Source: Marsupella aquatica (taxonomy: Eukaryota > Plantae > Marchantiophyta). From it: 64,000 nucleotides of DNA. Of this stretch, positions 37,555 through 40,617 are shown one piece after another. The translations under genes were made by a program, and so were the position numbers. How positions within the stretch are numbered: position 1 is the stretch's first letter; the number at the start of each line of letters is the position of its first letter. The DNA lies in contig OZ316899.1 in NCBI GenBank assembly GCA_973895155.1, positions 3,121,455 to 3,185,454 of the forward strand, given 5' to 3'. Below the pieces are notes generated by a model. It did no database searches, was not told the DNA's origin, and was given only the letters and a program-made list of their open reading frames with translations.

Positions 37555-40128
37555 ATGGCGGAGACTGAGCTGACGACGCGACCAATACTCACAGACATTC
37601 CATCGAATGCAGTGCATAGGCGGCAGTTGAAGACGGCTCTGGCAAAAATGGGCTTGAAGAAGCTGCTTCAACTTCCTTGGAAGATTTGCGAATTCAGCCT
37701 TATCGATCAAGGTGTCTGGGACGCTGAAGAAAGGATTGGTGTGCGCTCGCGTCCCAGTGTTTGGACTGAAGCGCTCATAGCGAAGGTCTATTCGACGCCG
37801 ATGGAGGGCGAGGATTTACAGAGGGTTGATTGTGAGCCTCGGGTTTATGTAGAATCCTTCTTCGCTCCAGGATCTTTCAAGAGGCGGAATGGATGGCTAG
37901 CGGCGGACTGCTTAGATAATTCTCTGCAGCGTCTATTTCGATTTCTGGCACCAATTTTCTACCCAGAAAGCCAGACGCGCATCACTCTTTCGTTCGCTGC
38001 AACGGTGATCTGTTCATTAGAACAGACGCAGTCTATCAATTGGACGAAGGTTTTGCACCGAGTAATTCATACTCAGGTCAAAAATTTTCGTAGCAGGCTG
38101 AAAACGGGGAAAATAAGGTGTACCTACTTGGCCCCTTATTTAGCTCACATTTACCATAAGTATGACTGTCTGCTTGTCTTGGAAAAAGATTTTTATCGCA
38201 ACAATCAGAGAGCATCTACCGGTGAAGCAAATTATATGCCTGAAGTACGAGAAGTCCGAGCCAATTCCACAGTGGTAGAGCTATGTGCAATACTCGACTG
38301 TGAGGAACCTGAACTGGTGGGTGAAGTTCGGAAATTGAAAGAGACAAGAGCATCAGCTGAAGGGAGTGACGATCCGATTCTTCACCAACCAAGAGAGGCT
38401 CAAGTTGCCGAAGATGTTCCTTCAGCAATGCCAACAGGGTTGGAGCATTCTATGTCACCTCGACTCTCGTGTTCACCTTGTGCTGCCGAGCCTATTTATG
38501 ATGTTGATCAGGATAATTCTGCTTCTCGGATGAATGTTGAAGATGAGGTGAGGGTGGATGAAGAAGGTTTTTCAGGGGAACCTCTTCAACATTCTACTGC
38601 TGAGGACGAGTATGATGGATTTACTTCTACCCCTGTTTTGGTTCCCATAGAGGCAAATAGTGATGCTTTGCAGGCTTTACAGGAGTATGATTCGTCCGAC
38701 TCTCTTAGTTCTAGCCCAAATATAGGTGAAATCCCTCTGGTCCAGGAGTCAGAAATATTAAGCTCAGAAATTGTGAAGCTGGTTAAAGTTGATTCGGAGG
38801 ATGCAATTGTGGATATAGACGAAGTAGGTGAACCAGTGACTTCTCCCCAATCTGTCGCAAGATACCCTGCCTGGTCTACACCTGGTTCACTCATATCGAT
38901 TCCTTTGGATATAACTAAGGAATTAGATGAGGCAATAGCCGCGATAGGAGCTCCTTCATTTCCGCCTGTAAAATGGGTTTCTCCTGAAGATGAGTTGATT
39001 GAAGGAGGCTCTGCTGGTTTTCCGAGTCGCAATCAGGTATCTGGTAATATGGGTATATCTGTACCCATATTGGTACCCGAGACACCCGCTTCGACAACCA
39101 GCTCAGCACCAGTTTCATTGGCTACAAACGAGGATAAAAACATTCGGGAGGAGTTTTCAGTGACGTATACTCGAAAATCTTGGAAACGGTTGCGCCATGC
39201 TATCAGTCGACAGATCTTTCCTGAAGCATCTTCCCAGGATTTTGAACAGGGAGAAGCACCTGTCGGAACAGACGAGCTACCCCTTCCTGTACTTTTGACA
39301 GATCGAACTAACCAGGAAGTCTCTTTACCTAGCGATAATTTTAAAGAAGAACTTCCTGTTTTAGTACCAATGCATCCCATTGCAGATCAACCAGCTACTG
39401 TTGCAAGAGAAGAATTTGAACCACTGGAGCCCGAACCTTCTGCTCCTTCGTCTCCTGTTACATTGCCAATTCGACCAGTTAAGGAGTCAGTGATTCCTTC
39501 CGCTATGCCAGATGTAATTTTCCGTTGGATAGGAGCACCAAGTGATGGAGAAGAAGACGAAGACCCTCGCATTATCAGAGTACCTCCTCGACTTCGGCAT
39601 ACAGTGGATTTGCCACCCCGAAATCCTATCCCTAATTTGGCTTCAATTCACAGGTGGGAGAAGAAACATTTTCGAGTAGCTTTTCGACATCTGGAGATGG
39701 AGAGCATTTTGCAGCAGCAGCAGATTTTGCCAATGACATCCCATCCGAGGATTCGTAGTTTGATTCGCACATATGAACCTGGGAAGGCGGTTCCTCCCAT
39801 TGATAAGGACAGACGACATAAGTTTTCGGAGTTCGAAATTTGGTGTTGGGTGTATATGCTTCGACGAGCTCAAGCTCCATTTCCGCCCCTTGTGCCGGAA
39901 ATTCCATGGCCCTATCCATACTATGTTTGGGTTTGTCCTGGTGGGTTTGCTATTCCAATTAAATATGAGAAGAAGCTTGTTAAGCTAAGGGAGCAGTTGA
40001 TTACAAAACAATGTATGCTACCGGCTTCCCAAGGGTTCAAGTCGCTTAGGTGTTTAGCGTTCCTACCTATTATTCCTTCTTATCCGGATGTGATTATTCA
40101 AGGTGTTTTATCTAGGACACAGATTTGA
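37555..40128 (+). CDS. Accessory ORF3 (857 aa) in the env-like position
   Basis: Uninterrupted ORF between the two PPTs. The N-terminal domain is shared with ORF 13128; long acidic/Ser/Pro-rich middle; W/Y/P-rich C-terminus; no obvious signal peptide. Confidence 0.85.
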   Translation: MAETELTTRPILTDIPSNAVHRRQLKTALAKMGLKKLLQLPWKICEFSLIDQGVWDAEERIGVRSRPSVWTEALIAKVYSTPMEGEDLQRVDCEPRVYVESFFAPGSFKRRNGWLAADCLDNSLQRLFRFLAPIFYPESQTRITLSFAATVICSLEQTQSINWTKVLHRVIHTQVKNFRSRLKTGKIRCTYLAPYLAHIYHKYDCLLVLEKDFYRNNQRASTGEANYMPEVREVRANSTVVELCAILDCEEPELVGEVRKLKETRASAEGSDDPILHQPREAQVAEDVPSAMPTGLEHSMSPRLSCSPCAAEPIYDVDQDNSASRMNVEDEVRVDEEGFSGEPLQHSTAEDEYDGFTSTPVLVPIEANSDALQALQEYDSSDSLSSSPNIGEIPLVQESEILSSEIVKLVKVDSEDAIVDIDEVGEPVTSPQSVARYPAWSTPGSLISIPLDITKELDEAIAAIGAPSFPPVKWVSPEDELIEGGSAGFPSRNQVSGNMGISVPILVPETPASTTSSAPVSLATNEDKNIREEFSVTYTRKSWKRLRHAISRQIFPEASSQDFEQGEAPVGTDELPLPVLLTDRTNQEVSLPSDNFKEELPVLVPMHPIADQPATVAREEFEPLEPEPSAPSSPVTLPIRPVKESVIPSAMPDVIFRWIGAPSDGEEDEDPRIIRVPPRLRHTVDLPPRNPIPNLASIHRWEKKHFRVAFRHLEMESILQQQQILPMTSHPRIRSLIRTYEPGKAVPPIDKDRRHKFSEFEIWCWVYMLRRAQAPFPPLVPEIPWPYPYYVWVCPGGFAIPIKYEKKLVKLREQLITKQCMLPASQGFKSLRCLAFLPIIPSYPDVIIQGVLSRTQI

Positions 40129-40140
40129 AGGACACCATTT

Positions 40141-40617
40141 ATGAGAGATATCAAACGGTGTTGTCATTTATATGTATATAAGCCGTTACTTTTGCAGCAT
40201 CCTGCAATTGTTTCCTTCTTTCTCCTTCGAATTGATATTTATCTGCTCATGTGGGACATCAAAGCTACTATGGATTGTTGGAATTCTTTACCCCGTGCTT
40301 TCCAACATTCCTTTGAAGGCAAGATCAAACTGGGAGGACATGCTATTCAACACTTTGTTATTGATCCAGGCTCTCGAATTAATTTCCTCTCCCACAGACT
40401 GTGCCAGCAATTTGTTCATCAAGAAGTACAACCGATATCTGCTCAGATATCAATCGATGGACGAATCATTAATCTTTGGGGAAGAGTTAAAGGAGTCCCA
40501 ATACAGATCGGAGAAGAATTCCATGACCTCGATTTTTATATTCTGGATTCGGATATCTCCCAACTCCCGTCAATGATTTTGAGCACTACTTGGATTATTA
40601 AGCCAGAATATTATTAA
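40141..40617 (+). CDS. ORF4: second retropepsin-like (aspartic protease fold) domain
   Basis: IKLGGHAI..FVIDPGSRINFLS...GRVKGVPIQIG...LDFYILD...MILSTTWIIK aligns colinearly with the element's own protease (VDGGASVNLIT...LDYVVIN...LLGRPWLYK). Confidence 0.78.
   Translation: MRDIKRCCHLYVYKPLLLQHPAIVSFFLLRIDIYLLMWDIKATMDCWNSLPRAFQHSFEGKIKLGGHAIQHFVIDPGSRINFLSHRLCQQFVHQEVQPISAQISIDGRIINLWGRVKGVPIQIGEEFHDLDFYILDSDISQLPSMILSTTWIIKPEYY

Follow-up and report, generated by a model that had tools for sequence, protein, structure and literature searches.

Why would a long terminal repeat (LTR) retrotransposon carry a second gene that resembles a protease? To our knowledge, retroelements are taken to encode one protease. 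The question is raised by a Ty3/gypsy-type element of the liverwort Marsupella aquatica, found in a 64,000-nt stretch of contig OZ316899.1 (positions 3,121,455 to 3,185,454 of the forward strand; hereafter the window), which encodes a main protease (PR1) fused to Gag and, 3' of pol, two further open reading frames (ORFs), ORF3 and ORF4. The conserved part of ORF4, here called PR2, encodes a predicted half-retropepsin, and the explanation that we place first, at a probability of roughly 0.4, is a non-cutting dummy partner likely damping the maturation of Gag-PR.

ORF4 occupies a stop-to-stop frame of 162 codons (40129-40617, + strand) in the frame of ORF3, and its 115-codon core was free of stops in 4 of 2000 dinucleotide shuffles. 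A phmmer search of ORF4 against 1.84 billion representatives, with E up to 0.001 as the threshold for a homologue, returned four proteins (P0001-P0004; E 3e-29 to 1e-5), which were 30-52% identical to ORF4 (31-54% within the matched stretch) and whose matches started only at residue 48. An earlier note on this DNA, made from the letters alone, had described the frame shared with ORF3, the junction TGA AGG ACA CCA TTT ATG and the motifs IDPGS and LSTTW, all of which are read in the sequence; the end-to-end alignment with a protease that it had claimed held for the core, where the fold is found, but not for the first 40-47 codons, which are outside the fold, nor for the C-terminal stretch, which is absent. 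The start that it had placed 12 nt after the ORF3 TGA does carry an ATG (40141), but this is probably not the start codon, because P0001 and P0003 begin, in their gene calls, at the Met equivalent to 40270 and one diverged subfamily of ORF4 copies keeps the in-frame ATG at 40249 (read by hand). From Met 40249 or 40270, PR2 would be 122 or 115 aa long, ending 7 residues past the helix Trp.

Modelled from a 7-row alignment in which two rows are near-copies of others, the PR2 core reached a pLDDT of 74.3 and a pTM of 0.69; the N-terminal 16 residues of the model, a stretch absent in P0004, fell below a pLDDT of 50, and a single-sequence fold begun at Met 40141 was uninformative (pLDDT 31.3). Foldseek placed Ddi1 and HIV-1 protease in its top rows (E 6e-5 to 1e-4, TM ~0.6), and VIA-align superposed the model on the proteases of equine infectious anaemia virus (EIAV; Z 10.2, rmsd 2.9, 94 aligned) and feline immunodeficiency virus (FIV; Z 10.0, rmsd 2.8, 97 aligned) and on Ddi1 (Z 9.9, rmsd 3.1, 93 aligned). 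The Ddi1 domain and monomeric retroviral proteases (M-PMV, 3sqf; foamy virus, 2jys) were the top structural matches of PR2, while dUTPase structures, considered for their "pseudoprotease" likeness, were absent from the matches listed, the best of which were retropepsins. The PR2 core is predicted to adopt the retropepsin monomer fold, and the absence of such a fold, which the earlier note had named as fatal to its idea, was not what the model and its match to the EIAV protease gave. Ddi1 differs from PR2 in having D-S/T-G and a six-stranded C-terminal dimer sheet (PMC7072860), a sheet that PR2 cannot form.

At the sequence level, ORF4 and PR1 were 19% identical over 100 residues with a raw score of 57, which 0 of 300 shuffles reached, and the identity of PR2 to PR1 within the element was 15-19% across alignments. 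By hhalign the PR2 profile matched PR1 at a probability of 97.3 (E 1.7e-11, 97 columns), and a profile of the four homologues built without ORF4 gave 113 bits to ORF4, 46.6 to PR1 and 38.7 to an Athila-type protease (P0007); ORF4 and PR1 were the sole matches of the PR2 profile in the window. P0004 was 33% identical to PR1, compared with only 15% for ORF4 in that alignment. All ten of the best family matches in an Atlas feature search with ORF4 fell in the aspartyl-protease clan. Among PDB sequences phmmer found no match to ORF4, and the PR2 profile retrieved Ddi1 domains (E 0.007-0.3) interspersed with chance calmodulin rows. These similarities fit PR2 as an old copy of a non-chromovirus protease, presumably made by duplication.

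Other searches for relatives had the following yields: a word-based search confirmed 0 of 4 candidates with ORF4 alone and 3 of 355 with the alignment, all previously found, and among 7996 longer candidates two were confirmed, the only fused form being P0002, whose N-terminal part is unrelated (weak evidence on fusions). ORF4, P0001 and P0003 have in common an N-terminal AFQxSF stretch. No related locus was confirmed among viral or genome contigs in a synteny search, and three weak metagenome loci (L001-L003) were discarded as chance finds, none of them exceeding 3.9 bits against the PR2 profile.

The differences from a working protease were read from an alignment of five PR2 lineages with PR1 and P0007. 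The Asp of PR2 aligns with DSG of Ddi1 and DGG of PR1, and around it: i) the x of D-x-G is P, R, R, N and R in the five lineages, the Thr/Ser of the fireman's grip being absent; ii) the G-R of the helix, seen as LGRP in plant elements and still present in PR1 and P0007, is replaced by S-T, S-T, N-S, N-T and N-S; iii) the chain ends 7, 7, 2, 2 and 2 residues past the position of the helix Trp, whereas PR1 and P0007 run ~25-30 residues further (the ends of P0001-P0004 are gene calls with stops unchecked on the DNA, and three of them end at one column); iv) the PR2 model is predicted without a strand after the helix. The determinants of the retropepsin dimer are given as the Thr/Ser grip, G86, R87 and the terminal sheet, which makes most of the contacts, and HIV-1 protease with R87K is mainly monomeric (PMC7072860). 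The Pro within D-[TSG]-G, which the earlier note had taken as a sign of impairment, is present, but the argument is weak alone, since the motif is DGG in PR1 and DLG in Athila proteases. Unlike this non-T/S residue, the loss of G-R and the loss of the C-terminal stretch are, in the alignment, specific to PR2. Two roles had been offered for PR2 at the outset, that of an enzyme dedicated to ORF3 and that of an impaired partner of the main protease: the latter is strengthened, because G-R and the whole C-terminal stretch are lost in all five lineages, while nothing links PR2 to ORF3 processing.

We propose the following course of events: i) an old copy of a non-chromovirus protease may have become an accessory gene; ii) PR2 would be translated separately, from its own short or spliced RNA and not via ORF3 read-through; iii) the product would be monomeric or weakly dimeric and unlikely to form a normal active homodimer; iv) its target would be PR1, which lies 5' of a presumably leaky stop, so that each Gag would come with one PR1; v) PR2, as a dummy subunit that retains fold and Asp loop, would hold back early cleavage or limit the copy number, much as p22 of Ty1 does at the Gag level. 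Defective protease monomers can poison retroviral protease dimers. A narrower claim, which we advance only tentatively, has the monomeric half-retropepsin form pairs with the Gag-fused protease and thereby time maturation or cap the copy number.

Several points weigh against this proposal. All five PR2 lineages retain the catalytic Asp and the Gly of D-x-G, which are among the 11 invariant columns of the 115 in the PR2 alignment, and the catalytic Asp is often lost in dead enzymes. Main proteases, too, have an x other than T/S (DGG in PR1, DLG in P0007 and FIDEL). There is no sign that PR2 and PR1 evolved as partners, because their identity is so low; a tree of eight proteases resolves nothing (support for the PR2 clade 22/0, long branches meeting); and the retrotransposon membership of P0001-P0006, which derive from short Logan contigs of 0.9-1.9 kb, is assumed. 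A chain without the terminal sheet should pair poorly with PR1 as well, which weakens the dummy-subunit step. Foamy-virus proteases dimerise otherwise, without G-R-N/D and the C-terminal strand (PMC7072860). Moreover a brake is not generally needed, because Gag-PR precedes the stop in Retand and Ogre with no PR2 reported. The proposal is weak on which partner PR2 has and on the direction in which it acts.

Some of the same points speak for the main rival, an active enzyme: an atypical retropepsin that forms a weak dimer or one held by an N-terminal extension and cuts ORF3 or a host protein when or where the Gag-fused protease cannot reach it. The invariant Asp and Gly are what such an enzyme would keep; the x of PR1 and of Athila proteases is not T/S either; foamy-virus proteases function without G-R-N/D (PMC7072860); the AFQxSF stretch of ORF4, P0001 and P0003 could give an interface strand; and PR2 lies directly 3' of ORF3. 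We nevertheless consider activity somewhat unlikely: three of the five lineages stop 2 residues past the helix Trp and have no C-terminal interface element, an Arg at x (three lineages) would, judging from the fold, meet its twin across the two-fold axis, the N-terminal residues that might serve as the extension are those of low pLDDT and are missing from P0004, and ORF3 is not known to be processed or to contain a cleavage site.

A less probable alternative keeps PR2 non-catalytic and monomeric but gives it another partner, namely the sites at which Gag is cut, the product of ORF3 or a host factor (e.g., of silencing or proteostasis), bound through the half groove and flap in aid of transposition. 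It shares the loss of the dimer features with the dummy-partner reading, and it agrees with the low identity to PR1, with the position of PR2 beside ORF3 in a 3' cassette between copies of the polypurine tract, and with the youth of the element, whose identical LTRs indicate that PR2 has not stopped transposition. On the other hand, it points to no particular partner, the cassette argument is positional only, and the catalytic Asp, kept better than most residues, is left unexplained; we therefore find this reading unlikely.

The dummy-partner reading treats PR2 as a protein of its own. The earlier note had instead drawn a parallel between two stop-separated units, gag-PR*pol and ORF3*PR2, and this parallel is not supported at the stops. 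The gag-PR stop reads TGA CAA TTA, which is the CARYYA type I read-through motif described in PMC3542737; the context is a perfect, tobacco mosaic virus (TMV)-like one and lies 3' of the protease, so that PR would accompany every Gag (a literature search found no paper that pairs CARYYA with a retrotransposon). The ORF3 stop reads TGA AGG ACA, with no CARYYA, CGG or CUA context, and the conserved part of ORF4 begins 120-141 nt 3' of it. It is accordingly quite improbable that read-through of ORF3 yields PR2 as a C-terminal domain: PR2 does share the frame of ORF3 across an open 40-codon spacer, but a shared frame has a 1 in 3 chance, a spacer of this length was free of stops in 204 of 2000 shuffles, the homologues are called as stand-alone ORFs from the 40270 Met, and none of the three contexts follows the ORF3 TGA (RNA-structure-dependent classes are outside this comparison). 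The spacer also holds a 75% pyrimidine tract, the sole TATAWAW of the element's + strand (40175-40181; 134/2000 shuffles) and an acceptor-like TTTTGCAG in phase 0 with ORF4 (40190-40197; 19/2000 shuffles); TATAWAW and TTTTGCAG are only hints because they were chosen post hoc, and codon log-odds on the spacer were set aside as confounded by stops in other frames. Taken together, the stop contexts, spacer shuffles, homologue starts and spacer motifs favour a separate protein of 115-122 residues, which may be made via an internal promoter or a spliced RNA, over an ORF3*PR2 unit.

Selection on ORF4 was assessed on gene copies compared through contigs aligned to the window. At least half of the words of 37200-40700 were contained in 5 of 10 listed sequencing runs, from three studies; the best of these may be the sample behind the window, and none of the listed runs was of RNA. 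Two diverged ORF4 subfamilies were found, one with 55 differences over 279 bases and the other with 19 over 120 in run X2, without gaps; the diverged contigs leave the spacer 40129-40248 uncovered. The listed differences fell 12/5/23 at codon positions 1/2/3 (chi-square p 0.002), with 40 of the 52 differing places listed, so that the 12 unlisted ones could change single calls. Classified by hand, 20 of the 40 were synonymous and 11 non-synonymous, and four codons with more than one change accounted for the other 9; with all 9 counted as non-synonymous, pN/pS was 0.29, an upper value for the two subfamilies pooled without multiple-hit correction (p 1e-4 against neutral site counts). No indels in ORF4 were listed across five different runs. 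Furthermore, the Asp codon had synonymous changes only, in both subfamilies, no change was listed in the Pro and Gly codons, and three 30-base loose ends past the aligned parts, read by hand, had no stops and similar residues.

On these comparisons ORF4 is a functional gene under purifying selection and no relic; the disrupted or neutrally evolving copies that the earlier note had set as a test of its idea were not what emerged. The view that ORF4 is a decaying, functionless relic of a captured or duplicated protease fragment, suggested by the several canonical motifs that are gone and by a Pfam match below the curated cut-off (Asp_protease_2, E 0.024; 15.8-17.1 bits against 24.3), is largely refuted by the third-position excess, the pN/pS of at most 0.29, the lack of listed indels and the recurrence of these losses and of the end point in homologues at 30-52% identity, and PR1 itself scores no better in that family (E 0.031, 15.4 bits).

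Plant non-chromovirus Ty3/gypsy elements have a main protease domain, PROT (PR1, P0007 and that of FIDEL, PMC2844528), with which PR2 has in common the retropepsin fold, a D-x-G whose x is not T/S and ~97 alignable columns; it differs in lying outside the polyprotein, 3' of ORF3, and in lacking LGRP and the 25-30 C-terminal residues. Athila and other plant LTR elements also carry extra ORFs in sense orientation at the 3' end; none of the domains listed for these in the excerpts of one survey is a protease (E 1e-10, at least 5 elements; PMC6317226, Neumann et al. 2019), whereas the present element has two such ORFs, the second with a predicted retropepsin fold. According to the same excerpts, extra ORFs below 250 codons were left unscored and elements with duplicated domains were removed, so that a second protease copy would have been missed by the survey. 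Excerpts of two reviews of extra ORFs (PMC7264820, PMC11963269) mention no protease-like ORF, and our literature search, with Repbase, GyDB, subscription papers and the element table/FASTA of PMC6317226 outside its range, turned up no second protease gene in any LTR retrotransposon.

The earlier note knew of no described example, and this holds for retrotransposons but less well beyond them, since ORF VII of soymoviruses (Caulimoviridae) looks like a stand-alone ORF of retropepsin fold. In a viral fold search (BFVD) with the PR2 model, "Uncharacterized protein 7" of soybean chlorotic mottle virus (SbCMV; P15634, 148 aa) matched at E 1.5e-3 (TM 0.52) and a 142-aa protein of blueberry red ringspot virus (BRRV) at E 4.3e-3. 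ORF VII is described as encoding a hypothetical protein of ~150 aa that is necessary for the infectivity of peanut chlorotic streak virus (PCSV) (PMC6482551). Like PR2, it is a short ORF standing on its own, and the plant reverse-transcribing element that carries it already encodes a protease in pol; it belongs to a virus and not to an LTR retrotransposon and is 8-15% identical to PR2, and the match may reflect a shared fold only. Because of this identity ORF VII is at most a convergent or very old parallel. It may have been called protease-like before. Nothing about it is stated in the excerpts of PMC7660458 and PMC2774666. A second protease gene would be new for LTR retrotransposons and possibly has a parallel in pararetroviruses.

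A likeness in function may be p22/p18 of Ty1, a separately transcribed truncated core protein proposed to be a trans-dominant inhibitor of particle maturation (PMC4599808). It resembles PR2 as an element-encoded, separate version of a core protein in truncated form, and differs from it in being part of Gag, made from inside GAG, whereas PR2 is a distinct paralogue with a gene of its own, only 15-19% identical to PR1, whose inhibitory action is our reading. If that reading is true, PR2 would be the protease counterpart of Ty1 p22 and, among natural regulators of a retropepsin, the first that an element itself encodes, and ORF VII of soymoviruses would have arrived at the same device independently. 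How protease activation is held back until particle assembly is an open question, for which PR2 offers a small, soluble candidate for a natural regulator; alternatively it would be a retropepsin that works without three supposed dimerisation features, and either outcome would be new. The fold match of ORF VII suggests an idea for a long-unexplained viral gene, as a second protease-like gene in plant pararetroviruses. Furthermore, with ORFs below 250 codons and duplicated domains as a blind spot of the survey, genes of this kind may occur widely among non-seed plants.

The host element is intact (13.55 kb), with LTRs, a 5-bp target-site duplication and the Ty3/gypsy domain order GAG-PROT-RT-RH-INT (RT, reverse transcriptase; RH, RNase H; INT, integrase); its features are collected in Table 1. 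The insertion is very recent, as the LTRs are 100% identical. Neither a chromodomain nor a second (archaeal-type) RNase H was found in ORF2 (Pfam, E up to 1). The element is a non-chromovirus Ty3/gypsy that resembles Athila in its primer binding site (PBS) and size, and possibly in its extra ORF; the tRNA-Asp type of PBS also occurs in TatII (PMC6317226). We call it "Athila-like" and not Athila because the stop codon follows PROT, unlike the prevailing Athila layout (a single ORF or a stop between GAG and PROT); a stop after PROT is the layout given for Retand and Ogre (PMC6317226). No tRNA genes were found in the window.

Table 1. Features of the host element and their positions in the window.
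Feature	Position	Strand	Basis or remark
5' target-site duplication ACCAG	28531..28535		same 5 bases next to both LTRs
5' LTR, 1391 bp, TG...CA	28536..29926	+	100% identity with 40695-42085
Primer binding site, tRNA-Asp type	29933..29950	+	17/19 bases as in the FIDEL PBS (PMC2844528), compared by eye
ORF1 gag-PR, 1018 aa stop to stop	31142..34198	+	Pfam Retrotrans_gag, zf-CCHC, Asp_protease_2 (E 0.031)
Main protease PR1 in ORF1	residues ~844-965, ~33671-34036	+	motifs VDGGA, LLGRPW; alignment
TGA then CAA TTA, candidate type I (CARYYA) read-through context	34196..34204	+	between gag-PR and pol
ORF2 pol: RT, RNase H, integrase	34199..37171	+	frame of ORF1, after one TGA
Internal copy of polypurine-tract region	37182..37209	+	3' of pol; 24/28 bases as in 40665-40692, E 0.003
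ORF3, 857 aa from first Met	37555..40128	+	stop-to-stop frame 37483-40128
Spacer, open in frame	40129..40248	+	ATG 40141, TATAWAW, TTTTGCAG, pyrimidine tract
PR2 (conserved part of ORF4)	40249..40617	+	predicted retropepsin fold; Asp codon 40363-40365
Polypurine-tract region, 5' of 3' LTR	40665..40694	+	sequence
3' LTR, 1391 bp	40695..42085	+	identical to 5' LTR
3' target-site duplication ACCAG	42086..42090		copy of 28531..28535

ORF3 and ORF4 form a cassette with a copy of the polypurine-tract region on either side (37182-37209 and 40665-40692). Many other contigs match only the sequence from ~40658 onward. ORF3 has an acidic, Ser/Pro-rich middle and a conserved C-terminal part, in which the listed differences fall 4/5/17 at codon positions 1/2/3 (n=26). 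It has no Pfam match, and its N-terminus gave two SH3 rows at chance level among PDB sequences; Atlas scores of 0.91-0.92 relate the N-terminal domain to ATHILA ORF-1 and Transposase_32 clusters (0.92 for a cluster in which 17% of the members carry PF03078, 0.91 for PF20167 clusters), which is a lead only.

Elsewhere in the window, a broken ORF3-like gene (13116-13786; 31% identity over 100 residues, E 6e-10) lies in a decayed region, near which no PR2-like or pol sequence was found and in which the stretch 6878-7566 is 68% like the LTR of the host element. Another Ty3/gypsy element lies in pieces on the minus strand of 1-4500, with several broken frames, including a gag-like sequence, a protease with LVDTGA and, at 2-523, an RT. 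Two inverted arrays of a 24-bp repeat (56077-57652), ~1.25 kb apart and 84-89% complementary, could be the ends of a foldback-type element. Finally, a short inverted motif, GACGCT...AGCGTC, recurs in the LTRs (28536-29926), in the spacer between pol and ORF3 (37290-37440) and near 6000-6760; it may be bound by a protein that the element itself encodes, ORF3 for example.

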